Positions 58 through 56,514 of a DNA stretch of 64,000 nucleotides are shown one piece after another. How positions within the stretch are numbered: position 1 is the stretch's first letter; each line of letters begins with the position of its first letter. Position numbers and translations under genes: made by a program. This stretch comes from Novosphingobium sp. (GTDB lineage: Bacteria; Pseudomonadota; Alphaproteobacteria; Sphingomonadales; Sphingomonadaceae), in the NCBI GenBank assembly GCA_024236175.1, contig JACKKY010000004.1, positions 439,249 through 503,248 on the forward strand, given 5' to 3'. The notes below the pieces were generated by a model that saw nothing but the letters and a program-made list of their open reading frames with translations, ran no database searches and was not told the DNA's origin.

Positions 58-1278
58 TCAGAACTTGAATTCGGCCTGCAGCCAGAACTTCTCGGTATCG
101 ACCGAGAAGCCGCTGGCATCGTAGTTCGCGTATTTCGCCAGGATGCCGACGGGGCCGAGCTTGAAGCCCAGGCTCGCGTCCCATTCGCTGCCGTAGCTGA
201 TGCTGCCGACGTCGCTGTCGAACTCGTGGTAGACGACCTGCGCGTTCAGGCCGGGAAGCAGATCCAGGCCCTTGAAATTGTAGGATGCGCCGAAATAGAT
301 GTCCTCGATCCCGGCCGGCGGCGTGTTCAGGAAGACGTCGGCCCAGCCGTTGAAGGCATGCAGCGTGGCCATCGGCGTGCGGAAACCGGCGCCATTGTCG
401 CTGCCGAGCAGCTCGTAGCCGGCCTTGAGACCGAAACCGGAGAAGGAGACGCCCGCTTCGCCGTGGATATAGTCGGCCGAGTAATCGAGCGGGCTGTTCT
501 TGTAGTCCTTCTGCTTGGCATAGCTCGCCGCGAGATCGAGCTTGAAACCGGTGCCCAGCGGGAACGAGGCCGTGGCGCGCGCGCCGTAGGTCTGGGTGCT
601 GTTGGCAAGCGCGTCGTCGAAGTCGAGCAGGTAGGCGAAGCCCTTGAGCTTGATCGGCCCGGCATCCACCCCGGCGCCCGCGAAAATGAAGTCGCCCTGG
701 AAATTCTGCCTCGGCCCGGCATCGACGCCGAAGATCGTATGCTGCGCGATCGAATAGGTGGCGTCGAGGCTGACCGGGCCGACCTTGGTCTGGCCACGGA
801 TCGCATCGAAGGTCTGCTCGTTCTGGCGCCAGCCGACGTTTCCGACGAACCGCGCATTGTCGAGAATGATCCGCTGCCGGCCGAGAGTAACCGCGCTGGC
901 GCCCTGCTTGTACATGAGCTGCAGCCGGTTGAGTTCGACATTGTCGGGATCGGCGACGACCGAATAGGGCTCCACGCCGTTGCCGACGTTGGTGTCGTTG
1001 TAGTCGTCGATCATGGCCAGCGTGCCTTCGGCTTCGACCAGCAGCGACAAATTGTTCATCTTGAACTCGGCACCGGCACGCAGACGCATCGTCAGGGCAT
1101 CGGCATTCCTCGCCGCATTGTCCTGATCAACCGTTTCGTAGCGCAGACGGCCGTCGATGATCGGGTCGATCGTCAGGCTGTCGCTGACCACCACGGGGTC
1201 GCCCGATGCCGCATACGCAGGGTGAGCGGCAGCGATCGGCGCCGCAAGCGCGGCCGCCGTTAGCAGTTGTTTCCTCAT
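58..1278 (-). CDS. Outer-membrane beta-barrel porin, alginate-export (AlgE-like) family; terminal gene of the nitrate-uptake operon
   Basis: It has the signal peptide MRKQLLTAAALAAPIAAAHPAYA, the family-typical segment GRQRIILDNARFVGNVGWRQNEQTFDA, alternating beta-strand pattern and a C-terminal Phe (AEFKF). It is co-directional with and 52 nt downstream of the ABC ATPase gene. Confidence 0.75.
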   Translation of the reverse strand: MRKQLLTAAALAAPIAAAHPAYAASGDPVVVSDSLTIDPIIDGRLRYETVDQDNAARNADALTMRLRAGAEFKMNNLSLLVEAEGTLAMIDDYNDTNVGNGVEPYSVVADPDNVELNRLQLMYKQGASAVTLGRQRIILDNARFVGNVGWRQNEQTFDAIRGQTKVGPVSLDATYSIAQHTIFGVDAGPRQNFQGDFIFAGAGVDAGPIKLKGFAYLLDFDDALANSTQTYGARATASFPLGTGFKLDLAASYAKQKDYKNSPLDYSADYIHGEAGVSFSGFGLKAGYELLGSDNGAGFRTPMATLHAFNGWADVFLNTPPAGIEDIYFGASYNFKGLDLLPGLNAQVVYHEFDSDVGSISYGSEWDASLGFKLGPVGILAKYANYDASGFSVDTEKFWLQAEFKF

Positions 1279-1330
1279 TCTTCTATTCCTTCCTGACGTG
1301 AACTCAGCCCAGGTCAGGCATCCTCTCCGC

Positions 1331-3010
1331 CTAGGCCGCCTGCGCTTGCGGCCCGTGATCGTATTCGGCGAGGAAGTGCAGAACCTCCTGCCGGTATTGG
1401 TAGAACTTGGGATGCTCGAGCAGCGCCTTGCGATCCCGTGGACGCGGCAGGTCTACTTCGAGGATCTTGCCGATCGTGGCCCGCGGCCCGTTGGTCATCA
1501 TCACCACGCGGTCAGCCAGCAGGATCGCCTCGTCGACATCGTGGGTGACCATGATCGCCGTCACCTTGGTGCGGTTCCAGACCTCGACCAGCACGTCCTG
1601 CAAGTCCCAACGGGTCAGGCTGTCGAGCATGCCAAAAGGCTCGTCGAGCAGCAGCAGCCGCGGGCTCAGGGCGAATGCCCGGGCGATACCCACGCGCTGG
1701 CGCATGCCGTTGGACATCTCGGACGCGAGCTTGTCCATCGCGGCGCCGAGACCGACGCGGTCGAGATAATATTCGACAATGTCGCGGCGCTCCGAGCGCG
1801 GAGCGTGCGGATAGACCCGCTCGACGCCCAGCGCCACGTTCTGCCGGGCAGTCAGCCACGGCATCAGGCTGGGAGCCTGGAAGACCACGGCCTTGTCGGG
1901 CCCCGCCACGTCGATCTCGCGATTGTCGAGCACGATTCCGCCGCCGCTGATCTCGTTGAGACCCGCCGCCATGGTCAGCACGGTCGACTTGCCGCAGCCC
2001 GAATGGCCGATAAGCGAGACGAACTCGCCCTTGTCCATGAGCAGGTTGAAATCCTCGACCACGGTCAGCGGGCCGTTGGGCGTGGGGTAGACCTTGTCGA
2101 GCTTGTAGAATTCGAGATAGCGGCGCTCGACCGCGCTTTGCGCCGCCTCGCGATAAGCCTGCGGCGGCGGGGCGAGGTCGAGCGGCGTCACATTGGGCAG
2201 GTCGACCAGCGAATCCCCGACGGTGCTGCTCTCGGCATTGAGCGATCCGAGGTAGGAGACGATCTCTCGCCGCAAGTGCTGGAACCCGGCGTCGTCGTTG
2301 ACCGCCTCGCGATCGCGCGGACGCGCGACATCGACATCGAAAATCCGGCCGATCCGCGCTGCCGGTGCAGGGGTCAACACCGCAACGCGGTCGGCCAGAA
2401 GCAGGGCCTCGTCGACATCGTTGGTGACGAGGATGATGGTGCGCCGCTCATCGCCGCGAATGCGCTCGATCTCGTCCTGCAGCTTGGCGCGGGTCAGGGC
2501 ATCGAGGGCGGAAAGCGGCTCGTCGAGCAGCAGGATCTCGGGCTCCATCGCCAGCGCGCGAGCAACCGCCACGCGCTGGCGCATGCCGCCCGATAGCTGG
2601 GCGGGCTTGCGGTCCATCGCATGGCCGAGGCCGACGAGTTCGACCTTCTGCTTCACCAGCGCGGCCCGGTCCGCGGCGCTGCGGTCCTTGTGGACGGCAT
2701 CGACGGCAAGCGCGACATTCTTCTCGACGCTGAGCCAGGGGAACAGCGAATAGGACTGGAACACCAGGCCGCGATCCTTGTCGGGACCGGTGACCGGCTC
2801 GCCGCGAAGCAGGATCTCGCCGGCGTCGGGCTCGACCAGGCCGGCGATCGAGGAGATCAGCGTGGTCTTGCCGGCTCCCGAGAAACCGAGGATCGCGATG
2901 AATTCGCCTTCCTCGACTTCCAGGTCGATACCGCCGAGCACTTCGGTGACGCTGCCGGTCTTGCCGGCATAGGCCTTGGCGACGCCGCGCAGGGAAAGGA
3001 TCGGTTCCAT
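1331..3010 (-). CDS. Nitrate/nitrite (NitT/TauT-type) ABC transporter ATP-binding protein with two fused ATPase domains
   Basis: It carries two Walker A motifs (GFSGAGKTT, GHSGCGKST), two ABC signatures (LSGGMRQRV, MSNGMRQRV) and two Walker B motifs (LLLDEP twice). It sits directly downstream of the nrtB-like permease. Confidence 0.85.
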   Translation of the reverse strand: MEPILSLRGVAKAYAGKTGSVTEVLGGIDLEVEEGEFIAILGFSGAGKTTLISSIAGLVEPDAGEILLRGEPVTGPDKDRGLVFQSYSLFPWLSVEKNVALAVDAVHKDRSAADRAALVKQKVELVGLGHAMDRKPAQLSGGMRQRVAVARALAMEPEILLLDEPLSALDALTRAKLQDEIERIRGDERRTIILVTNDVDEALLLADRVAVLTPAPAARIGRIFDVDVARPRDREAVNDDAGFQHLRREIVSYLGSLNAESSTVGDSLVDLPNVTPLDLAPPPQAYREAAQSAVERRYLEFYKLDKVYPTPNGPLTVVEDFNLLMDKGEFVSLIGHSGCGKSTVLTMAAGLNEISGGGIVLDNREIDVAGPDKAVVFQAPSLMPWLTARQNVALGVERVYPHAPRSERRDIVEYYLDRVGLGAAMDKLASEMSNGMRQRVGIARAFALSPRLLLLDEPFGMLDSLTRWDLQDVLVEVWNRTKVTAIMVTHDVDEAILLADRVVMMTNGPRATIGKILEVDLPRPRDRKALLEHPKFYQYRQEVLHFLAEYDHGPQAQAA

Positions 3011-3024
3011 CGCGCCTTACTCCC

Positions 3025-4077
3025 TCAGACGGTGTGGTTGCGGTTGGCGATCGCCTGCAGACCCATCATCATGCGGTCGAGCAGGAAGCCGATCAGGCCG
3101 ATGACGATGACGGCGAACATGATGCGCGCCAGGCTTTGCGAGCTGCCGTTCTGGAACTCGTCCCAGACGAACTTGCCGAGGCCGGGGTTCTGGGCGAGCA
3201 TTTCCGCCGCGATCAGCACCATCCAGCCCACGCCCAGCGAAAGGCGCATACCGGTGAAGATGTAAGGCAGCGACGAGGGCAGGACGAGCCGGGTCAGCTT
3301 GGCGAACCAGCCGAGGCGCAGCACGCGGCCGACGTTGAGCAGGTCCTTGTCGATCGAGGCGGTTCCCACCGCGGTGTTGATCAGCGTCGGCCAGAGCGAG
3401 CAGAGCATCACGACGATGGCAGAGATAACGAAGCTCTTGGCCAGCAACGGATCCGCGCTGGTGATAGTGGCGGAGACCACCATGGTCACGATCGGCAGCC
3501 AGGCCAGCGGGCTGACCGGCTTCATGATCTGCACCAGCGGGTTGATGGCCGCGTTGAGCGTCGGCGAAAGGCCGCAGGCGAGGCCGATCGGCACGGCGAA
3601 GATGGTCGCGAGCAAAAAGCCGAGCGCCACGGTTTCAAGCGACGTGAAGACCTGGTCGAGGAACGTCGGCGGACCGGAATATTCGAAGGCCTGCGCCTGC
3701 GTTCCGGCCGCAATCCTTGCTTCCTGCGCGGCTTCGAACTCCGCCTTGGCGTCCTGCGACGCCTGCCATTCCCCGAACAGGGTCACGCCCTGCTCGGCGA
3801 CTTCGACCGGCCCCGGAAGGGCCCCGAGCGACGTATCGACCTGCGGCGCCAGCACCGCCCAGAGCCCGATGAACGCCAGAATGCCGAGCATCGGGGCGAA
3901 GAGCGGCTTGCCGAACCTGGCGAGCAGCGCCGGAAGCGCTCCCTCGGAAGCCGAAGGCTTCTTCGGTTCGGGCGCGGCGCCGGGATCGGACGACCCGGCT
4001 TCAGGCGATGCGGCCTTTGTTTCGGTTCCGGTCGCTTCGGCCGGGGCATGGGCGACATCTGCGAATGCGGTTGCCAT
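3025..4077 (-). CDS. nrtB: Nitrate ABC transporter permease
   Basis: It has multiple hydrophobic helices and a BPD-type permease core (KPVSPLAWLPIV...). It lies between the nrtA-like and ATPase genes. It also has a low-complexity N-terminal extension. Confidence 0.8.
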   Translation of the reverse strand: MATAFADVAHAPAEATGTETKAASPEAGSSDPGAAPEPKKPSASEGALPALLARFGKPLFAPMLGILAFIGLWAVLAPQVDTSLGALPGPVEVAEQGVTLFGEWQASQDAKAEFEAAQEARIAAGTQAQAFEYSGPPTFLDQVFTSLETVALGFLLATIFAVPIGLACGLSPTLNAAINPLVQIMKPVSPLAWLPIVTMVVSATITSADPLLAKSFVISAIVVMLCSLWPTLINTAVGTASIDKDLLNVGRVLRLGWFAKLTRLVLPSSLPYIFTGMRLSLGVGWMVLIAAEMLAQNPGLGKFVWDEFQNGSSQSLARIMFAVIVIGLIGFLLDRMMMGLQAIANRNHTV

Positions 4078-4107
4078 GGGATTACTCCTAGCTGGACTTC
4101 GTGCTGC

Positions 4108-5532
4108 CTACTGAACGCCCGCCGGCGTCACCCGCTGGCCTTCCTTCAGGCCGATCGAGAACTTGGCGAGGTAGGCGTTGGGCTTCTTGCCGTCGTAGGT
4201 GATGCCGTCGATGAAACCGCCCTGCGGCTTGCGGTAACCGTCGGTCTCGGGGATCGCTTCCTTGGCGATCGTGCCTTTCTCGGCCAGCGCGTTGGCGGCG
4301 GCGAGATAGAGGTCCGGCCGATAGACCGCCTTGGCGGTGTCGAAATACCACTGGTCCGGATGATCCTCGGGGATCTGGCCCCAGCGGCGCATCTGCGTGA
4401 GGTACCAGATGGCGTCCGAATAGAACGGATAGCCGGCGAACTTGTCGAAGAAGATGTTGAAGCCGGGAGCCGGCCGGGTATCGCCCGGCTCGAAGGTGAA
4501 CTTGCCGGTCATGGAAGCCGCGATAACCTCGTAATCCGCGCCGACGTAGTTCGGCTGCGAGAGGATCTTCACCGCTTCGGGACGGTTCGCGCCGCTGTCG
4601 GCATCGAGCCATTGCTGGGCCTTGATCATTGCCCGCAGGACCGCCGCGGTCGTCGCCGGATACTTCTCGGCGAAATCCTTGCGCAGGCCGAAGACCTTTT
4701 CCGGATTGTCGTCCCAGATCTCGTCGTCGGTGATCACCGGCACGCCGATCTTCTTGAACACCGCGGCCTGGTTCCACGGTTCGCCGACGCAGTAGCCCTC
4801 GATCGTGCCCGCCTCGAGCGTCGCCGGCATCTGCGGCGGCGGCGTGACCGAAAGCTGGACATCGGCATCGACAAGCCCGGTCACGTCACCCGCGGTGTAG
4901 TATCCGGGGTTGAGGCCGCCTGCCGCAAGCCAATAGCGCAGCTCGTAATTGTGCGTGCTGACCGGGAAGACCATGCCCATCTTGAAGGGCTTGCCCTGCT
5001 TTTCGAAGGTGGCGACCACCGGCTTGAGGACCGAGGCGGAGATCGGATGCTTGGGCTTGCCGTCAGGCTGCTTGGGCAAGTCCGGCTTCACCATGTTCCA
5101 GACCTTGTTGGACAGGGTGATGGCATTGCCGTTGAGGTCCATGCTGAGCGGCGCGATCAGCTCGGCCTTGGTGCCGTAGCCGATCGTGGCGGCAATCGGC
5201 TGGCCCGCGAGCATGTGGGCTCCGTCGAGCTGGCCGCCGATCACACCGTCGAGCAGCACTTTCCAGTTGGCCTGCGGCTCGAGCGTGACGTTGAGGCCCT
5301 CCTCGGCGAAGAAGCCCTTTTCCTTGGCGATCGCGAGCGGCGCCATGTCGGTCAGCTTGATGAAACCGAATTTCAGATTCGGTTTCTCGACCGCGCCTTC
5401 CACTGCTGCCGGAGCAACGGCATCGCCCGATGACGAATCCGCACCCTTGCCGCATCCGGCGAGCGCCACACCGGCGAGCAGTGCCGCCGCGAAACCCCGC
5501 CTGTCGAACCGAAATCCACGATCCTTGACCAT
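4108..5532 (-). CDS. nrtA: Nitrate ABC transporter substrate-binding lipoprotein (NrtA/CmpA family) with a Tat-type signal
   Basis: The N-terminus [20 protein letters not shown] combines a twin-Arg motif with a lipobox Cys. The NrtA-like body includes [21 protein letters not shown] and CVGEPWN. It is the first gene after the ANTAR leader. Confidence 0.85.
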
Positions 5533-5566
5533 ATGCTGTTCAATCCCGTCTACGCTTGCGACAATG

Positions 5567-5612
5567 AAAAAAGCCGCCTCGACATGGTCCCCTCGGGACC
5601 AGATCGGGCGGC
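5567..5612 (-). terminator. Intrinsic terminator inside the nrtA leader (target of antitermination)
   Basis: The sense strand reads GCCGCC-cgatct-GGTCC-cgagg-GGACC-atgtcga-GGCGGC followed by TTTTTT. It lies 35 nt upstream of the nrtA ATG. Confidence 0.75.
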
Positions 5613-5675
5613 GCCATTGCCACTCAAATGTAAGTGTTCAGCAGAGCGACTCGCTGCAGCCCATCATTGGGCCGC
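5608..5675 (-). promoter_or_regulatory. ANTAR-type dual hexaloop RNA element (NasT binding site / antiterminator)
   Basis: Sense-strand hairpin 1 is GCGGCCC-AATGAT-GGGCTGC (5656-5675). Hairpin 2 is GTGGC-AATGGC-GCCGC (5608-5623). Both loops are 6 nt with A at position 1 and G at position 4. The 3-prime arm of hairpin 2 is the 5-prime arm of the terminator. Confidence 0.8.
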
Positions 5676-5729
5676 ATCGCCTCTGCTGCCATCGTGAGTA
5701 AGCGATTCGGGGGTGCCGCGTAAACCCTT

Positions 5730-5749
5730 TTTTTGCAGCGCAGCAAAAA
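5730..5749. repeat. 20-nt hairpin-forming repeat TTTTTGC-AGCGCA-GCAAAAA, copy 2
   Basis: It is near-identical to 18-37. It lies 7 nt past the nasS stop codon and upstream of the nrtA leader. Confidence 0.6.
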
Positions 5750-5756
5750 TATCCTG

Positions 5757-6968
5757 TCACGGAAGCTTCGCGAGATAACCTGGAAGGTCGGCCGGATCGA
5801 ATACGAGGCCATCGAAAAAACGGTTATTTGTCATGGTCATATCGCCTTGCTGCATGGACACTGCAAGCGGGCCGGACAAGCTCCCTTCGACTTTCGAACT
5901 GGCCCCCGGCAGCGGCTCCCCGGTCCCCGCCAATGCACTGCGGTATACGTCCGGCCGGAACACCCGGGCGGCCTGCTGGGCTTCTTCGGGGTCGAACGGG
6001 ATGCCGTCCCAGCGCACCATCTGCGTGTAGAACCACTGCGCCTGGCTGACCCACGGAAAGTTGGCAGCTTCCCGGTACTGGAACATGAAATCGGCAAAAT
6101 GCACGGTGTCTTGCCCGCGCGCCATCAGCAGACGATCGGAGATCGCCCGCCGGATCAGGCGCGCATCCCCGTCGAGATATTGCGGGCGCGCCAGGATCGC
6201 TGCGTTCGCATTCCAGTTTTCGGGGTCGACGAAATGCGCCCCGGCCTTGCGCAAGGCGCGAATCAGGGCCTCGACCGAGCCGCGCTGCTGCTCCAGCACC
6301 GGCTCGCGCAAGGCGAGGACCTTCTCGACCCCGCGCCGCCAGATCTGCGCCGTGGCGAGCACGATCACCCCTGCCCCGCGCTCAACCGCAACGCTGTTCC
6401 AGGGCTCGCCGACGCAGATCGCGTCGACTTCACCGGCCGCCAGCGCATCTGCGCAGAACGGCGGCGGCACGGTGGTGATCTCCACGTCCCTGTCCGGCCG
6501 GATGCCGCAGGCGGCAAGCCAGTAGCGCATCATGTAGTTGTGGCTGGAATAACGATGGACAACACCGAACCGCAGCGGCTTTCCGGCCTCGATCCGCTGC
6601 CGGGCGACTTCGGCAAGCGCCGCGCCGACGATCGCCGGATCTCCCAGCCGCCCGGGCGGGCTCACCCGCGCGGCGATTTCCGGCCGCATCGTGATCGCGT
6701 TTCCGTTGAGCCCCAGCACGAACGGCACAGACAGCGGCTGTGCCGGCCGCCCCCGCCCCAGTGTGGTGGCGATGGCGAGCGGCGCGACAAGATGCGCAGC
6801 GTCGCTGTGGCCGTAAAGCAGGCGATCCAGCACCGTCGCCCAGCTCACGTCCTTCACCAGCCGCAGGGTGAGCCCTTCTTCCTCGGCAAAACCATGCTCC
6901 TGCGCAAGGATCGGCAGGCAGGCATCGACCAGCGGCAGGAAACCGATGTTCATCTCGGTTTTCATCAC
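5757..6968 (-). CDS. nasS: Cytoplasmic NrtA-like nitrate/nitrite sensor protein
   Basis: It has an NrtA-family body without any signal peptide (MMKTEMNIGFLPLVDACLPILAQEHGFAEEEGL..., CVGEPWN). Its start overlaps the nasT stop (GTGA/TGATG). Confidence 0.8.
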   Translation of the reverse strand: MMKTEMNIGFLPLVDACLPILAQEHGFAEEEGLTLRLVKDVSWATVLDRLLYGHSDAAHLVAPLAIATTLGRGRPAQPLSVPFVLGLNGNAITMRPEIAARVSPPGRLGDPAIVGAALAEVARQRIEAGKPLRFGVVHRYSSHNYMMRYWLAACGIRPDRDVEITTVPPPFCADALAAGEVDAICVGEPWNSVAVERGAGVIVLATAQIWRRGVEKVLALREPVLEQQRGSVEALIRALRKAGAHFVDPENWNANAAILARPQYLDGDARLIRRAISDRLLMARGQDTVHFADFMFQYREAANFPWVSQAQWFYTQMVRWDGIPFDPEEAQQAARVFRPDVYRSALAGTGEPLPGASSKVEGSLSGPLAVSMQQGDMTMTNNRFFDGLVFDPADLPGYLAKLP

Positions 6969-7543
6969 GTCTTTCCCATCAGTTCATGCGCGGTGATCAC
7001 CGCTTCGGCGATATCGGCGATGCGCCGACCCTGATTCATCGCGGTGCGGCGCAGTTCGCCATAGGCTTCGGGTTCCGGCAGTCCGCGACTGTCCATGAGG
7101 ATGCGCTTCGCCTTGTCGACGGCTTCGCGTTCGGCAAGCTGCCCGCGCGCCTCGGCAAGATCGGACTGGAGGCGCGCAAATGCCCTGAACCGCCGCACGG
7201 CGAGGTCCAGAAGCGGACGGATGCGGTTGGCGGCCAGGCCATCGACCACATAGGCGGACACGCCCGCCTCGACCGAAGCGGCAATGGATTCCTCGTCCGA
7301 TTCGTCGACGAACATGGCGATCGGCCTGTCGAGCACCCGGCTGACGGCGAAATACTCCTCGAGCACGTCGCGCGACGGGTTGCCCAGGTCCATCAGCACG
7401 ATGTCCGGTGCAATCTCGGTAATCCGCGCAAGCAGCCCGTTGCGGTCGGAGACCACGAAAATTTCGCAGTCGTCCAACTCGGCGAGGCCTTCCTGAATTA
7501 CCGAGGCACGCGCTGGACTTTCATCGACGATGGCAATGCGCAT
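6965..7543 (-). CDS. nasT: Response-regulator receiver plus ANTAR RNA-binding antiterminator
   Basis: The sequence MRIAIVDESPARASVIQEGL... is a receiver domain. The C-terminal AVDKAKRILMDSRGLPEPEAYGELRRTAMNQGRRIADIAEAVI is ANTAR-like. I chose the start at 7543 because the 23 upstream codons in the track have low GC3. Confidence 0.85.
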   Translation of the reverse strand: MRIAIVDESPARASVIQEGLAELDDCEIFVVSDRNGLLARITEIAPDIVLMDLGNPSRDVLEEYFAVSRVLDRPIAMFVDESDEESIAASVEAGVSAYVVDGLAANRIRPLLDLAVRRFRAFARLQSDLAEARGQLAEREAVDKAKRILMDSRGLPEPEAYGELRRTAMNQGRRIADIAEAVITAHELMGKT

Positions 7544-7872
7544 GCAGATATTGTGCAGTGCAATATTAGCGGCGGCAAGCAGAAAGCTCAGAATACTCGG
7601 GCTCCGTACCACCCTTCCACTTGTATCGCTGCAATGCGGCGCAAAACCTCATCGCGCACCGCACTATTTCGGCACGGTTGATGCACGCCGGCGTCCGCGC
7701 GAGCATGTCGAGCGGGTGACCGAGGCGCGCGCCCGTATCGGCCGCGACCGGACCGCCGATTCCCGCTGCGCCGACCTGCTTCGCGATCCGAGGGGCTCGA
7801 TGCGCAGGCTCCAAGCGGCACTGGGCAAATAGGAGGTGGAACGGAAAGGCTGACGCGGAGCGGAAGCCCCGC

Positions 7873-9426: not shown

Positions 9427-10800
9427 TCAGAAGCTTGCGTCCAGCGAGACATAGCTGCCGCGCGGATTTCCAAAGCGGTTGGCGTTGGGCGCCTGCGTCA
9501 GGAACTCTCCGTTCAAGATGAGCACCGCCCCCGCCTCAAGCTGTAGCCGACTCGGGATTATCCAGTAGCGCACACGGCCTTCGATCTGGTGGCCGGCGAA
9601 GTTCCCCGATAGCCCGGCCGGGTCGCGCACTCCGGTGCTGGCGAAAGCGTCGCTGGCGCTTGCCAGCCAGGCCGCCCGGTACATGGAGAAGGCATCCCAG
9701 CGCCTGCCCGGTTTCACTTCCAGCCGCACGCCGGGAGAACTGATGTTGGCGCGGCCCAGCGCGCCGAAGATTCCCGTCGGGCCGAACTCCCCGCGACGGG
9801 CGCCGAACAGCGTATCGAACCTGCCCCAGGACTTTCCCGTCCCGTCTCCCGAAGCCAGATCGTATTGGAGCGCAATTCGCGGCGCCCAGTGTCCGGAGAA
9901 GCGGTAGCCCAGAGAAGCGTGGAGGAAGTAGGCCGAGACATCGAGCTTCGCGGCACCCGGCGCCGTCCCGGCGCTGATGGCGCCGAACTGGTATGCGCCC
10001 TCCAGTTCGAAATCGAGCCTGCCGGTGGCCGGTGCGCGATAGATGCGCACGCCGGGCGTGAAGAGATGGCGGTTGCGGGTGGCGCGACCGGGCCGGTCGC
10101 CTTCTTCCAGCACGAGGAAATAGGCCTCCAGCGCGGTGCTGTCGCCGACCGGCCGGGCGGACAGATGGGCGCCCCAGAAGGCGAGATCGAAACCTTCCCT
10201 GTCCCATCTTACCTTGTTGTCGAGAACCCCCTGCCTATCGCCGGGCAGCCGCTGCTGGGGCAGCGTATAGAACAGCGAGAGCGCGGTACCGTTCCGGCCG
10301 GAAAAGTGCGCGTGAACCCCGGTGAAGGCATTGGTGGTGTTGCGATAATTGTTCCGGGCGACGAGCCGGCGCGAGCCGAGGTCCATGGTGAAGCGGCCAA
10401 GGTCCAGCCGCGTATCTGTCCCCTCGCCCAGCGCATCTCCAAGATCGAAGCCTGCATAGGCCTGGACGAGTTCCAGCGCGTTCACCTCGCCTGTCCCCAC
10501 GGAGCTGCCGCTATCAGTCGACCATGCGCGGGAATCCTGCAGCTCGGCACCGATGCGGACAGGGCCGGTATCATATTCGGCCAGGAGGTCGGTGCGCAGG
10601 GCAACGATGTCGTCGTTGCGGTCGAGGCCCGGACGGAACTGGTTGCCGAGCGCCTCGTACCGGACACGCATGCTGCCGGAGACCGTCAGCCCGTCGGGGT
10701 TGCCCAGCGCCTGCTGCAGTGTCGGGGGAGAGTTGTCACCTTCCTCGGCAACGGCAGTACCCGGGAAGAAGACGCAAGTCGCCAACAGGACCGCGTGCAT
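9427..10800 (-). CDS. Outer-membrane beta-barrel porin, alginate-export (AlgE-like) family, second copy
   Basis: I chose the start at MHAVLLATCVFFPGTAVAEE (signal peptide). It has MRVRYE and GRFTMDLGSRRLVARNNYRNTTNAFTG, which resemble the AlgE-family signature, and a C-terminal Phe (LDASF). Confidence 0.7.
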   Translation of the reverse strand: MHAVLLATCVFFPGTAVAEEGDNSPPTLQQALGNPDGLTVSGSMRVRYEALGNQFRPGLDRNDDIVALRTDLLAEYDTGPVRIGAELQDSRAWSTDSGSSVGTGEVNALELVQAYAGFDLGDALGEGTDTRLDLGRFTMDLGSRRLVARNNYRNTTNAFTGVHAHFSGRNGTALSLFYTLPQQRLPGDRQGVLDNKVRWDREGFDLAFWGAHLSARPVGDSTALEAYFLVLEEGDRPGRATRNRHLFTPGVRIYRAPATGRLDFELEGAYQFGAISAGTAPGAAKLDVSAYFLHASLGYRFSGHWAPRIALQYDLASGDGTGKSWGRFDTLFGARRGEFGPTGIFGALGRANISSPGVRLEVKPGRRWDAFSMYRAAWLASASDAFASTGVRDPAGLSGNFAGHQIEGRVRYWIIPSRLQLEAGAVLILNGEFLTQAPNANRFGNPRGSYVSLDASF

Positions 10801-10885
10801 ACAACAGGAATGTCCGGGGCCTGACTGGCCGAGCCGATTCTGCAAAGTCGATCTTCCTCACGGAATGGCTTCTCAAGCCGGCCTT

Positions 10886-10921
10886 TTCACAATCTATATA
10901 CGATGGAATATAGATTGTGAA
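10886..10921. promoter_or_regulatory. Perfect 14-bp inverted repeat TTCACAATCTATAT-N8-ATATAGATTGTGAA; Mo-box-like operator candidate
   Basis: It has the same TCTATAT-N8-ATATAGA core and spacing as the site in front of modA (45364-45389). It lies 86-121 nt upstream of the porin ATG at 10800. Confidence 0.5.
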
Positions 10922-10961
10922 CCTCAAGTTCACCCTGATCCCATCGGCGGCGGGATCGCGA

Positions 10962-12443
10962 TCAGCGCGGCGAGTAGAGAATCTGGCCCTTCCCGGTCGC
11001 GGCAACGCGCAGGAACAGTCCCGCCCCGGTCACCTGCACCAGGTCGTGATTCACATCGTCGATCGTGGCGGAGAGCCGGAAATCGCCTTCCCTTCGATTG
11101 GCGATCGCCCGCCGTGCCGCTTCGAGCACCTTGTCGTAGTCCTCGCTGAAATCCTCGGTCAGGCTCGTCGCAATCTCCTCCTTGACCTTGTCACTCAGCA
11201 TCAGCTGGATCAGCAGGTCCGCGGCCATGCGGTCCGCCCCGCCGAATATCTCGAGATCGCGGACCCTGATCACCTGCGAATTGGGCGTACTGACCGGAGT
11301 GCCCGTCAGCCAGATACGCCCGTGCGACTTGCCGAAGCGGGTCCCGAAACGCTCTCCCACCGGCTCGACCTGCGCTTCGATCCCGACCGCAAGGCGATTG
11401 TCGGAGGTGGCGTAGATGGTGACCTTCTCGAACTTGGCATCGACGCGGCCGACGCCTTCCAGCCGGATGCCGCGCGCGGCCAGTTTGCGCAGGGCGCGCA
11501 GGACGACAGGCTCGAGCTGGGTATAGTCGGCAACCACCGGAATGAAGAAGCGCAGGCCGGAATTCTGGACGGTCTCCAGTTGGGGCGGAAGCGGCGTCGG
11601 CACCGGCATGGCCGGCTTGTCGCCGACGAAGGTCTCCGTCACCGCTTGCGCCGCGACCACCAGCTCGACGCGGCGCCCCGCGACACGATAGCCCGAAAAG
11701 CCGAGGCCGCTGGGCGTCACCCGCATCCAGGCGGGCGGCTTTTCGCGGTTCAGCTCGATAACCGTGAACCCCTCCTTCCAGGCATCGGCGATGACGGGCC
11801 TGATCCGGACTTTGGCGATTTCCTTCTGGAGATCGCGTTCCAGCCCGGAGACAACTTTCGCGAGTTCCTTGTCGGCGCGCTTCACGAAGCGGATACGCTG
11901 GCCCAGGAAATCGATGCCGGGCGGCTCGGTCCACCCATAGGAGATGTCTACCTTGGCGTGCGGATTCCAGTTGCGGTCGACGCTGAGCCGGACGTCGGCG
12001 CGCACCGTCGCCGATCCATCGGCCGTCTCGCTTTTCAGGACGCCGCCCACGTCGCGTGCGCTCAGGACCGCGTTGACCGGCAGCGTGATGGTGATGCGCT
12101 GTCCCGATCCGGAAAGGCGGATGCGGCCGCGGGTAACCTGTCCGACGATCCGGCAACCGATGTCCGGCGTAACCTTGATGCGGCCGCCGAACGCCTTGAT
12201 CCGCTGCGCCGGCACGCAATTTTCCCGCCGCTCGTCGATAGACCACAGCTTCCGGGGAGTCCTGCGCTCAAGCCCTGCCTGGATTTCATCGAGCGAGAGG
12301 CTGATCGGCACGGCAAGCGTCGAATCCTGGCTCGGGAACTTCGGCGCGGCCGTGACCCGAGGCGGCGCAGGATGGTCGTATTGCGAATTGCATCCGCCAA
12401 GCAGCAGCAGAGAGATCAGCAGGCCGGTCGCGATCCTGACCAC
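10962..12443 (-). CDS. Lipoprotein of unknown function (DUF4403-like by recollection)
   Basis: It has the lipobox LLLLGGC after MVRIATGLLIS, good GC3 and no recognisable catalytic motif. Confidence 0.6.
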   Translation of the reverse strand: MVRIATGLLISLLLLGGCNSQYDHPAPPRVTAAPKFPSQDSTLAVPISLSLDEIQAGLERRTPRKLWSIDERRENCVPAQRIKAFGGRIKVTPDIGCRIVGQVTRGRIRLSGSGQRITITLPVNAVLSARDVGGVLKSETADGSATVRADVRLSVDRNWNPHAKVDISYGWTEPPGIDFLGQRIRFVKRADKELAKVVSGLERDLQKEIAKVRIRPVIADAWKEGFTVIELNREKPPAWMRVTPSGLGFSGYRVAGRRVELVVAAQAVTETFVGDKPAMPVPTPLPPQLETVQNSGLRFFIPVVADYTQLEPVVLRALRKLAARGIRLEGVGRVDAKFEKVTIYATSDNRLAVGIEAQVEPVGERFGTRFGKSHGRIWLTGTPVSTPNSQVIRVRDLEIFGGADRMAADLLIQLMLSDKVKEEIATSLTEDFSEDYDKVLEAARRAIANRREGDFRLSATIDDVNHDLVQVTGAGLFLRVAATGKGQILYSPR

Positions 12444-45363: not shown

Positions 45364-45389
45364 TTTCTATATACCGTAAGATATAGAAA
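45364..45389. promoter_or_regulatory. Mo-box-type operator TTTCTATAT-N8-ATATAGAAA
   Basis: It has perfect 9-bp inverted arms and lies 17 nt upstream of the modA ATG. TATAT-type arms are characteristic of ModE-family operators. Confidence 0.6.
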
Positions 45390-45405: not shown

Positions 45406-46197
45406 ATGGCCCATCCAGTCCGCACAATCGTCGCAGCCCTGGCGATGCTGCTCTTGGCCGCCTGCTCCGGCGTCGCAGAGGATGACGCGAAGACCAAGGG
45501 CCCGGTGGTTCTCGCGGCTGCCAGCCTTCAGGATGCGCTCGAAGATGCGGCTGCGACCTGGACGGCGCGGGGACACCTCCGCCCGGTGCTGTCCTTTGCC
45601 GCAACTTCGGCCCTTGCCAGGCAGATCGAAGCCGGTGCGCCGGCCGACCTGTTCATCTCAGCAGACGAAAAGTGGATGGACGGAGTCGAGAGCAAGGGGC
45701 TGCTGCGCGGCGGAAGCCGGGCCGACTTCCTTGCCAACAGCCTAGTGCTGATCGCGCCGGCCGACAGCGACACCGAACTCACGATAGCACCCGGCTTCGC
45801 ACTGGCCCAGAAGCTGGGATCAGGGCATCTCGCGGTTGCCGACCCCGATGCCGTCCCCGCCGGCCGCTATGCAAGGCAAGCGCTGACCAGGCTTGGTGCC
45901 TGGAGTCCTGTCGAGGGCAAGCTCGCGAGAGCCGAGAACGTGCGCGTTGCGCTGGCGCTGGTCGCGCGAGGCGAAGCGCCGCTCGGCATCGTCTATGCCA
46001 CCGATGCAAAAGCCGAACCAAAGGTCAGGATTGTCGGGCAATTCCCTGCTGACAGCCACTTGCCGATCACCTATCCGCTGGCGGTGCTCGGGACCTCCAA
46101 CCATGCGGACACGGACGATTTCCGTGCCTATCTCGTCTCGGAGGACGGCATGGCCATTTTCCGGAACTACGGCTTTGAGGCTCCTGGGCTGAAATGA
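45406..46197 (+). CDS. modA: Molybdate ABC transporter substrate-binding lipoprotein
   Basis: The start at MAHPVRTIVAALAMLLLAACSG contains a lipobox. It has AAASLQDAL, FSFAATSALARQIEAGAPADLFISAD and PAGRYA. Confidence 0.85.
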   Translation: MAHPVRTIVAALAMLLLAACSGVAEDDAKTKGPVVLAAASLQDALEDAAATWTARGHLRPVLSFAATSALARQIEAGAPADLFISADEKWMDGVESKGLLRGGSRADFLANSLVLIAPADSDTELTIAPGFALAQKLGSGHLAVADPDAVPAGRYARQALTRLGAWSPVEGKLARAENVRVALALVARGEAPLGIVYATDAKAEPKVRIVGQFPADSHLPITYPLAVLGTSNHADTDDFRAYLVSEDGMAIFRNYGFEAPGLK

Positions 46198-46892
46198 TCC
46201 TTTCTCCGGTGGAATGGGAAATTGTCCTGCTCTCGCTGAAAGTCAGCGGGACCGCGATGGCGGCGATCCTGCCGGTCGCTTTCGGCCTCGCCTGGATCCT
46301 CGCGCGCAAGCGTTTCGCCGGGAAGGTGGTGCTCGACGCGCTGATCCACCTGCCGCTGGTCCTGCCTCCGGTGGTGACCGGCTGGCTCCTGCTGATCCTG
46401 TTCGGCATCAACGGACCGGTGGGAAGGTTCCTGGCAGACACGGTGGGCCTGACGTTCATGTTCCGCTGGACCGGGGCCGCGCTTGCCGCCGCCATCATGG
46501 CATTGCCGCTGATGGTGCGCGCGATGCGACTCTCGATCGAGTCGGTGGACCGGCGACTGGAAGGCGCGGCGCGCACGCTGGGCGCGGGGCCGTGGCGCAC
46601 CTTTTTCGAGATAACCCTGCCGCTGGCCCTTCCCGGCGTGCTCGCCGGCATGGTGCTCGGCTTCGCCCGCTCGATCGGCGAGTTCGGAGCGACCATCACC
46701 TTCGTGTCCAACATCCCCGGCGAGACCCGTACGCTGCCGCTCGCGATCTACACGACGCTGCAACTGCCGGGCAGCGAGGCCATCGTCACCCGCCTTGCGA
46801 TCATATCCGTGATCCTGTCGCTGGGCGCACTGGTGGTCTCCGAAGTGCTGGTCCGCCGCAGCGGCCTGGGCCGGGGACGCCATGTCTTTTGA
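46194..46892 (+). CDS. modB: Molybdate ABC transporter permease
   Basis: Its ATG overlaps the modA stop (ATGA). It has the typical ModB core ARTLGAGPWRTFFEITLPLALPG and FGATITFVSNIPGETRTLPLAIY. Confidence 0.9.
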   Translation: MILSPVEWEIVLLSLKVSGTAMAAILPVAFGLAWILARKRFAGKVVLDALIHLPLVLPPVVTGWLLLILFGINGPVGRFLADTVGLTFMFRWTGAALAAAIMALPLMVRAMRLSIESVDRRLEGAARTLGAGPWRTFFEITLPLALPGVLAGMVLGFARSIGEFGATITFVSNIPGETRTLPLAIYTTLQLPGSEAIVTRLAIISVILSLGALVVSEVLVRRSGLGRGRHVF

Positions 46893-47511
46893 GATCGACA
46901 TCCTGATCCGCCGCGGCGGGCGCAAGATTTCGGGCGACTTCAAGGCGCCTGCGGGCCTCACCGCCCTCTTCGGACCTTCCGGCGCCGGCAAGACCAGCGT
47001 GCTGGACGCGATCGCCGGACTGCTCCGGCCCGAACGCGGTCGCATCGTCGTCGGCGGCACGACATTGTTCGACAGCGACAAGGGAGTCGATCTCAAGCCC
47101 GAGCGCAGGGCTTGCGGATACGTCTTCCAGGACAGCCGGCTGTTTCCCCACCGCAGCGTCACCGACAACCTGCTTTACGGCTGGCGCCTGGTGCCCGCCG
47201 AGCGGCGCTGGATCGTGCCCGAGGTGGCGATCGAGTTCCTGGGCATCGAGCATCTGCTGGACCGCATGCCGACAACCCTGTCAGGCGGAGAAGCCCAGCG
47301 CGTCGCCATCGGCCGCGCGCTGTTGAGCAGCCCGCGATTCCTGCTGATGGACGAACCGCTGTCATCGCTCGACCGCAACCGTCGCGAGGAGATCATGGGC
47401 GTGATCGAGCGCATTCGCGACGAATTGCGCCTGCCGATCCTTTACGTCAGCCACGACCGGGCCGAGGTCGAGAGGCTCGCCGACCAGATCATTCCGATCC
47501 ACACGAAATAG
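46882..47511 (+). CDS. modC: Molybdate ABC transporter ATP-binding protein, ATPase domain only
   Basis: It has Walker A GPSGAGKTS, the signature LSGGEAQRV and LLMDEP. It is 209 aa and therefore has no C-terminal TOBE-type domain. Confidence 0.85.
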   Translation: MSFEIDILIRRGGRKISGDFKAPAGLTALFGPSGAGKTSVLDAIAGLLRPERGRIVVGGTTLFDSDKGVDLKPERRACGYVFQDSRLFPHRSVTDNLLYGWRLVPAERRWIVPEVAIEFLGIEHLLDRMPTTLSGGEAQRVAIGRALLSSPRFLLMDEPLSSLDRNRREEIMGVIERIRDELRLPILYVSHDRAEVERLADQIIPIHTK

Positions 47512-55599: not shown

Positions 55600-56514
55600 A
55601 TGAAGTTCACCCTCGAGTTTCCCGTCAACGTCGTCGATCCCCCGGGGGAATTCCAGTCGATGCCCGCGATCCGCGAGATGGCCGAAGCGCTGGAGCAGGC
55701 GGGCATCGATGCCTGCTATGTCACCGATCACCCGGCGCCGGATTCAAACTGGCTTAAGGCTGCGTTCGGCCACGATGCGCTGGATCCCTTCGCCGGGCTT
55801 GCCTTCGTTGCCGCGGCAAGCAGCAAGCTGTTGCTCCACACCAACATCGTCGTGCTGCCATATCGCAATCCCTTCGTGACCGCGAAAGCCGCCGCGACCG
55901 TCCACGTGCTTTCGGGCGGGCGGCTGATACTCGGCGTCGGCATCGGCTACCAGAAAGTGGAATTCGAAGCGCTCGGCAGCGACTTTCATCGCCGGGGCAA
56001 GCTCACCGACGAGGCACTTGCGGCAATTCGTGCGGCCTGGACTGGAGGCGGGGTCGAGATAAGCGGATCGGGCTTCAGGGCCCAGGGCGTCGAGCCCCGC
56101 CCCGCCCCGAACCCGCCCCCACCGATCTGGATCGGTGGGGGCAGCGAAAAGGCGCTGGACCGGGCGGCGCAATGGGGCGATGGCTGGTGCCCGTTCTACG
56201 CCGCGCCGGGCATGAACAAGATCAACCAGGATGCCGGTATTCAGTCGATCGAACATCTGCGCGAGCAGATCGCCCGGCTGCAGGAGAAGCGCGCGGCGCT
56301 GGGGAAGACCGCTCCGTTCGACATCGCGCTGGGCCCGCGGATGCGCATCAAGCGGGCCGACGCAGCGAGCGCGCAACGCTTCCTTGACGAAATCGGGCCG
56401 CTGCAGGAAGCCGGCGTCAGCTGGGCGACTGTTGAAATGATCCATCCCAGCCGCGCCGAGTATATCGAACTGGTGCATTGGTTCGGCGAAGAAGTGGTCG
56501 CGAAGACGCGATAG
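55600..56514 (+). CDS. Luciferase-like monooxygenase (LLM) class flavin/deazaflavin-dependent oxidoreductase
   Basis: It has a TIM-barrel LLM pattern: DACYVTDHP, LLLHTNIVVLPYRNP, GGRLILGVGIGY and PPIWIGGGSEKALDRAAQWGDGW. Confidence 0.8.
   Translation: MKFTLEFPVNVVDPPGEFQSMPAIREMAEALEQAGIDACYVTDHPAPDSNWLKAAFGHDALDPFAGLAFVAAASSKLLLHTNIVVLPYRNPFVTAKAAATVHVLSGGRLILGVGIGYQKVEFEALGSDFHRRGKLTDEALAAIRAAWTGGGVEISGSGFRAQGVEPRPAPNPPPPIWIGGGSEKALDRAAQWGDGWCPFYAAPGMNKINQDAGIQSIEHLREQIARLQEKRAALGKTAPFDIALGPRMRIKRADAASAQRFLDEIGPLQEAGVSWATVEMIHPSRAEYIELVHWFGEEVVAKTR

Follow-up and report, generated by a model that had tools for sequence, protein, structure and literature searches.

A perfect inverted repeat upstream of an AlgE-like porin gene shares its core with a box at the modABC promoter of the same window (the whole 64-kb stretch of DNA analysed), and the two boxes have the layout of ModE operators. 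The reading that we favour, with a probability of roughly 0.65, is that the core at 10893-10914 is a ModE-type operator through which the porin gene is co-repressed with modABC by molybdenum, and that the porin passes molybdate across the outer membrane. The product is most likely a molybdate-repressed oxyanion porin, providing the outer-membrane step of molybdate uptake. That the porin belongs to the molybdate regulon had been proposed from the letters of the window without database searches (hereafter, the sequence-only reading). Comparative evidence now supports this idea well, and suggests a dedicated molybdate gate made by this bacterium and its relatives under metal scarcity.

The porin-side palindrome, TTCACAATCTATAT-acgatgga-ATATAGATTGTGAA, outranks every other short-range inverted repeat of the window. 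Re-read from the sequence, it is indeed a perfect 14+14 repeat; its arms, first described as AT-only, are better called AT-rich, with A/T at 11 of 14 positions (79% AT in the stem). The box at modA, TTTCTATAT-accgtaag-ATATAGAAA, ends 16 nt before the modA ATG (45406), its core ~18 nt before. Common to both is TCTATAT-N8-ATATAGA, said at first to occur nowhere else in the 64 kb: the window contains exactly two perfect matches, those of the porin and modA boxes. When up to three mismatches were allowed one extra match appeared, as against 0.10 expected by chance, and three core matches were reached in none of 100 shuffles at the same stringency. Since the window is 61-69% G+C, two AT-rich palindromes of such kind are far beyond chance.

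Several other features of this DNA were recorded alongside. The second perfect inverted repeat of the window is a GC-rich 13+13 palindrome at 56115-56142, GCCCCCACCGATC-nn-GATCGGTGGGGGC. A small hairpin, GTGAAC-TTGAG-GTTCAC, at 10917-10933, overlaps the upstream arm of the porin-side palindrome, with which three GTGAA/TTCAC copies fall within 50 nt; in the scan it counted as weakly terminator-like, such hairpins being within chance (0.4 expected), and it is kept in neither of the orthologous loci L006 and L086. Two independent short-read contigs, L084 and L085, both break off (at their position 1) precisely on the palindrome's outer edge, at window 10921, and the inverted repeat therefore probably breaks assemblies. 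A simple scan detected no sigma-70-like promoter in the porin or modA promoter region; TTCACA-N17-TATAGA, read by hand within the porin box, is a guess at one.

Table 1. Features of the window bearing on the porin and modABC promoters.
Feature	Coordinates	Strand	Remarks
Alginate_exp (AlgE-like) porin gene	9427..10845	-	PF13372; probable start TTG 10845, alternative ATG 10800
Ribosome-binding site GAGGAAG	10853..10859	-	ahead of TTG 10845; read from sequence; kept in L006 and L086
Perfect inverted repeat	10886..10921		14+14 with 8-nt spacer; upstream of porin gene; putative functional core 10893..10914
DUF4403 gene	10962..12443	same as porin gene	upstream of porin gene; profile match
Mo-box of modABC promoter	45364..45389		core 45366..45387; 7-N8-7 layout like E. 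coli modA operator
modA, periplasmic molybdate-binding protein	45406..46197	+	NF007958 257 bits, TIGR01256 188 bits, both above cutoff
modB, molybdate ABC permease	46194..46892	+	NF006939 339 bits
modC, ATPase	46882..47511	+	209 aa; TIGR02142, profile positions 3-203 of 353; without C-terminal TOBE/Mop domain

The sequence-only reading had likened the boxes to operators of the ModE family, and the likeness is close. In MG1655 the modA operator of E. coli reads CGTTATAT-TGTCGCCT-ACATAACG, i.e. GTTATAT-N8-ACATAAC, and both window boxes have the same 7-N8-7 geometry and the same TATAT core. They also fit the published ModE-site consensus ATCGCTATATA-N6-TATATAACGAT (PMC2700814) and an archaeal motif tested experimentally, RTTATGT-N8-RCATAAY (PMC12327845); in Rhodobacter, MopA and MopB repress via Mo-boxes (PMC6925177). 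The two 7-nt half-sites with a TAT(A/G)T core and 8-nt gap that typify a ModE operator are thus found at 10893-10914, and the motif recurs at the modABC promoter of the same genome (45366-45387). Because geometry and core agree with the E. coli operator and with the published motifs, the modA box is, by its sequence, a canonical Mo-box, whose core recurs in the porin box.

The gene downstream of the palindrome had been called an AlgE-like porin, and so it proves: its 9427-10800 frame matches PF13372 with 158.6 bits (cutoff 25.2) over profile positions 3-388 of 395, and an AlphaFold model built on 15 homologues (pLDDT 73.7) is an 18-stranded beta-barrel. When this model was searched against PDB folds the top 17 matches were all AlgE (TM 0.59-0.73), the best of them at 0.66-0.73 with ~12% identity; a PDB sequence search with the porin gave no match, the link to the AlgE structures coming from the fold search alone. 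Seventeen arginines are invariant among 15 porin homologues. Translation probably starts at TTG 10845, because of the GAGGAAG ribosome-binding site ahead of it and because the N-terminus to which it gives rise, MQNRLGQ, is conserved in orthologues (M-x-N-x-x-G in P0002, P0003 and L006). The box, placed at first 86-121 nt upstream of an ATG start at 10800, consequently lies 41-76 nt upstream of this likelier start.

In this genome the porin gene is not adjacent to modABC. It is surrounded by aromatic-catabolism-like genes. An amidohydrolase gene lies downstream, the DUF4403 gene upstream and a Rieske oxygenase gene is also among the neighbours, with no alginate or exopolysaccharide biosynthesis cluster around the porin. 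Profiles confirmed the DUF4403-like gene and modA, both named in the sequence-only reading, and modB and modC as well. Of the Mo-dependent functions that it listed, the Mo-hydroxylase at 63 kb is borne out by a MoCoBD_2 match and the nitrate assimilation unit in part, through a nitrate ABC transporter and NasS/NasT-like genes; nitrate reductase was not confirmed in the window. The operon resembling a nitrate ABC importer, in the region of 1331-5532 and 5757-7612 (both minus strand), encodes an NMT1_2 binding protein, a permease and a double ATPase; the NasS/NasT-like genes (NMT1_2 and ANTAR response regulator) adjoin it, and a distant Alginate_exp-like protein (PF13372, 30.7 bits; 58-1278, minus strand) closes it. 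The second anion importer of the window thus has an AlgE-like porin of its own.

Our comparison drew on 80 genome loci with related porins, and on several metagenomic contigs carrying closer relatives. The sequence-only reading had proposed looking for the box in orthologous promoters, and there it is kept. In the syntenic orthologues L006/L085 (76-83% identity) and L086/L087 (76%) ATCTATAT-N8-ATATAGAT is preserved exactly amid diverged flanks, and in L086 amid a diverged spacer too; the box is the longest invariant block of a three-way promoter alignment. The conserved part is the inner 8+8 nt (ATCTATAT/ATATAGAT). The outer 6 nt of the palindrome are not conserved, its 14-nt extension being strain-specific, which argues that the box is a protein site, not an RNA stem. 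The closest non-syntenic relatives, P0004 (66%, L088) and P0005 (64%, L089), are encoded divergently from modA, and each of the two shared intergenic regions contains two boxes, one near modA and one near the porin gene; in L088 a short modE, for a 127-aa HTH protein, lies beside modC. Within each genome, the bases that flank the porin box vary together with those around the modA box.

The wider family was scanned with a 7-N8-7 matrix, a strong upstream site being one that scores 12 bits or more in the 330 nt before the porin gene. Twelve of the 80 porin loci have such a site; the next best locus scores 5.4 bits, and the distribution is bimodal. Across the related loci, ~0.9 Mb together, sites scoring 18 bits or more are seen only before a porin gene, modA or one TonB-dependent receptor (TBDR) gene, and L097, which was outside the matrix training, has a 23.6-bit site at its modA. 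The sequence-only reading had allowed that the repeat might prove a dispersed element, which, over the window and the related loci, it does not: there are two copies in 64 kb, and the strong sites of the related loci are confined to these three kinds of promoter. Chance as the origin of the box pair is excluded, since the core is unique to two sites in the window, kept in orthologues and confined in the survey.

Linkage to modABC was also scored. The transporter genes adjoin the porin in seven genome loci (L018, L024, L052, L059, L070, L078 and L079), and porin relatives are physically linked to them in nine loci in all. In a neighbour-joining tree of the porins, drawn without bootstrap, the window porin groups with L006, L005 (which has a box) and L018 (modABC-linked), and its sister is a sulfate-linked clade. 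Other box- or mod-linked clades include Stakelama/Sphingomonas, a Novosphingobium group and two genomes of the gammaproteobacterium Steroidobacter, in both of which the box reads CGCTATAT-N8-ATATAGCG. About 48 of the 80 porin loci have neither a box nor an anion-transporter neighbour; because the neighbours of the other clades are unrelated (GDT1, MCP, lipase, EVE), the link to anion importers does not hold family-wide.

Two arrangements among the modABC-linked loci deserve description. In L018, a Sphingomonadaceae MAG, the order at 1051-7296 is a short modE divergent from modA-modB-modC, two adjacent Mo-boxes (3620, 3644), a TBDR gene (3711-5840) and the porin gene. No homologue of this TBDR occurs in the window or in the other loci; its apparent control by ModE hints at uptake of a molybdenum chelate. 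In the Sphingomonas loci L078 (~5840-6000) and L079 (~2265-2376), modCBA is divergent from the porin gene with no canonical Mo-box between them; CTATAGATCGC, perhaps a variant operator or half of one, is common to both intergenic regions.

In the closest large homologue clade (54-64% identity; L001-L004, L007-L013, L016, L022 and L036) the porin gene, at ~6001, lies directly downstream of cysT/W/A-like genes at ~3100-5300, with CysT confirmed in L001 (369 bits), and in L015 and L019 a TauE/SafE anion permease gene is upstream of it. From their gene neighbourhoods these homologues, annotated 'alginate export family protein', look like sulfate-uptake porins. None of the 17 cysTWA-linked porins has a Mo-box before it.

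The proximity of these sulfate-linked sisters bears on the alternative that survives best, which we judge unlikely, though far from negligible. It accepts the box as a true ModE-type operator, and the porin as Mo-regulated, but takes the channel for a general small-oxyanion pore of the sulfate type, Mo control raising the anion permeability of the outer membrane or tuning competition between sulfate and molybdate when Mo is scarce. Only one clade-specific position separates the Mo-linked from the cysTWA-linked porins, which argues against a molybdate-specific pore chemistry, and for a protein nearly indistinguishable from its sulfate-linked sisters the sequence-only reading's 'missing' molybdate entry route is too strong a wording. 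The placement of the sister clade downstream of CysT/CysW/CysA or TauE genes favours a general pore as well, as does the distant family member at the end of the window's nitrate ABC operon. On the other hand, a separate paralogue with its own box, or beside modABC, has been kept in several independent clades, which suggests selection for a Mo-related role; and specificity could sit in loops beyond the resolution of the clade comparison.

Which protein would act at the boxes? No modE came up in the window itself when E. coli ModE and two short ModE proteins served as tblastn queries. A homologue elsewhere in the genome, for which the sequence-only reading had advised looking, is present in a near-identical assembly, GCA_020446565.1: the exact porin and promoter are found there on contig JAGREK010000058.1, which matches the window with 99.99% identity along 11,952 nt, and contig JAGREK010000133.1 encodes P0243, a protein of 127 aa annotated Novosphingobium sp., whose gene is not beside modABC. 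The best family match of P0243 is TIGR00637 ModE_repress (E 1e-22), at 80 bits, below the 98.5-bit cutoff. The alignment covers residues 6-93 of the E. coli ModE model; P0243 comprises the DNA-binding domain only, with no Mop domains. The L006 genome encodes a homologue, P0124, and short ModE-type homologues number more than 5000, many of them, Novosphingobium proteins included, named 'molybdate transport system regulatory protein'. A short ModE of this kind, also with the DNA-binding domain only, has reportedly been studied in Agrobacterium tumefaciens, where it is said to repress modABC. The usual cytoplasmic molybdate-binding modules are absent from both ModC (46882-47511, 209 aa, no TOBE/Mop) and the 127-aa regulator (L099 3001-3384, no Mop).

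Some further occurrences of the motif lie away from molybdate genes. In one Novosphingobium clade the porin gene is divergent from a GDT1/UPF0016 cation-transporter gene, and the region between the two contains a Mo-box-like GCTaTAT-N8-gCATAGC in L038 (~1096) and L054 (~1366), absent in L029, L032, L037 and L046. The bare 14-nt core, searched against metagenomes, matched 120 contigs, mostly low-GC and unrelated, in none of which it is next to modA or a porin gene. In three unrelated, moderately GC-rich contigs (L133, L143 and L173) it is beside genes for an ArsP permease, a GntR/FCD regulator and an ArsR-family regulator; look-alike palindromes may be used by other regulator families. Since its matches fall in unrelated metagenomic contigs, the bare core is not diagnostic outside the lineage, on which this search is silent.

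It could be argued from these occurrences that another regulator, not ModE, recognises the palindrome, whose match to the modA box would then reflect a shared Mo-unrelated regulator or coincidence. The core does lie beside ArsR-family, GntR-family and other genes in the unrelated contigs, and in L038 and L054 the box is between a porin and a cation-transporter gene. Within the lineage, however, modA, the porin and one TBDR gene are the only places with strong sites, the layout equals that of experimentally defined ModE sites, a ModE-family protein is present, and the flanks of the porin and modA boxes co-vary genome by genome. A different regulator is possible but unparsimonious, first for the match to ModE operators, second for the site specificity in the survey and third for the ModE-type protein in the genome; we regard it as improbable.

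An intrinsic terminator was considered and rejected: the stem is AT-rich, there is no U-tract, the outer stem is not conserved, and the terminator scan did not report the 14-nt palindrome. The sequence-only reading had likewise thought the repeat unlikely to be merely the terminator of the DUF4403 gene, and the missing U-tract and unconserved outer stem bear it out. It is most improbable, too, that the repeat serves more generally as an RNA hairpin that terminates or stabilises the DUF4403 transcript at its 3' end and plays no part in porin control: it does lie 41 nt past the DUF4403 stop codon, can form a 14-bp RNA stem (local MFE z-score -2.5) and is overlapped at its edge by the terminator-like hairpin of 10917-10933, but AAAGGCCGG, not a U-tract, follows the stem, L006 and L085 can form only 8 AT pairs, the outer stem of L086 differs in sequence—compensatory changes are lacking, as the core sequence is invariant while the outer stem varies—the motif is also found in places with no gene end before it, divergent modA/porin regions among them, and the hairpin at 10917-10933 is neither conserved nor beyond chance expectation.

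Returning to the molybdate-repressed porin, from the motif, its conservation, the modABC linkage of relatives, the ModE-family protein and the fold we infer binding, the direction of regulation and the substrate as follows. A short ModE-type regulator, consisting of the DNA-binding domain only and encoded elsewhere in the genome, would bind as a dimer to the porin box and to the near-identical modA box. With sufficient Mo both boxes would be occupied, and modABC and the porin gene repressed; when Mo is scarce both would be derepressed. Through the monomeric 18-stranded AlgE-like barrel, rich in conserved arginines, molybdate, and probably also tungstate and sulfate, would diffuse across the outer membrane, to be captured by periplasmic ModA and imported by ModBC.

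More tentatively, at somewhat less than even odds, AlgE-like barrels may form an unrecognised class of outer-membrane gates for nutrient oxyanions in Sphingomonadales and other Proteobacteria, with paralogues wired one-to-one to a cognate ABC importer: for molybdate through a ModE box or a modABC neighbour, for sulfate through a cysTWA operon and for nitrate through an nrt operon. If this is true, high-affinity molybdate uptake would gain its first dedicated outer-membrane component in the Mo paralogue, and the ModE regulon a new member.

Accounts of molybdate uptake usually begin in the periplasm, with ModABC, and take it that the outer membrane is crossed unspecifically. Were a porin switched on together with modABC, the molybdate pathway would gain a step at the outer membrane and the ModE regulon would reach into the cell envelope. 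Such a porin would also offer a concrete gene to knock out in studies of growth at Mo concentrations, nanomolar or picomolar, low enough to limit nitrate use and nitrogen fixation in soils and waters. Many 'alginate export family protein' entries might then be reassigned to small-anion uptake, which bears on annotation and on metagenomics that uses PF13372 as an exopolysaccharide marker.

A search of the full-text literature turned up neither a ModE-regulated porin nor a 'molybdate porin' nor a molybdate-linked Alginate_exp protein. The only dedicated outer-membrane route for molybdate found in the full-text literature is that of P. aeruginosa, Anr-controlled and made up of a T6SS-secreted ModA and the outer-membrane protein IcmP (PMC8602904). 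It addresses the same problem, getting scarce molybdate across the outer membrane, by another mechanism, a secreted binding protein and a receptor; no T6SS components take part here.

ModE/Mo-box control of modABC, as by ModE of E. coli, MopA/MopB of R. capsulatus and short ModE, resembles the present case in its 7-N8-7 repeat with a TATAT-type core near the modA start, and in a regulator with the ModE N-terminal winged-helix domain. Repression under Mo sufficiency is the established logic of these systems. Unlike them, the proposed system has an outer-membrane porin gene as its second target, and its candidate regulator lacks Mop domains and is not encoded beside modABC.

AlgE, the alginate export porin of P. 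aeruginosa, has an electropositive, anion-selective pore. The window porin belongs to the same PF13372 family and is modelled with the same 18-stranded fold as AlgE (PDB 3RBH, 4AFK), and it too has many conserved arginines. It differs from AlgE in most of its sequence, in having no alginate biosynthesis genes nearby and in its genomic partners. Since these partners are anion importers, uptake of small oxyanions is implied, not export of a polymer.

The closest precedent for the logic proposed here is found in phosphate uptake. OprP and OprO of Pseudomonas and PhoE of E. coli are anion-specific porins induced together with the Pst phosphate ABC importer under phosphate starvation. There, as we propose for molybdate, an oxyanion porin and a high-affinity ABC importer are placed under one regulator and derepressed by starvation. 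OprP has an unrelated fold (TM 0.43 against the porin model), and the two cases differ in regulator, PhoB as against ModE, and in anion. By this analogy, the concept of a starvation-induced anion porin paired with an ABC importer is known from OprP and PhoE; what would be new here is the fold, the regulator and the anion.
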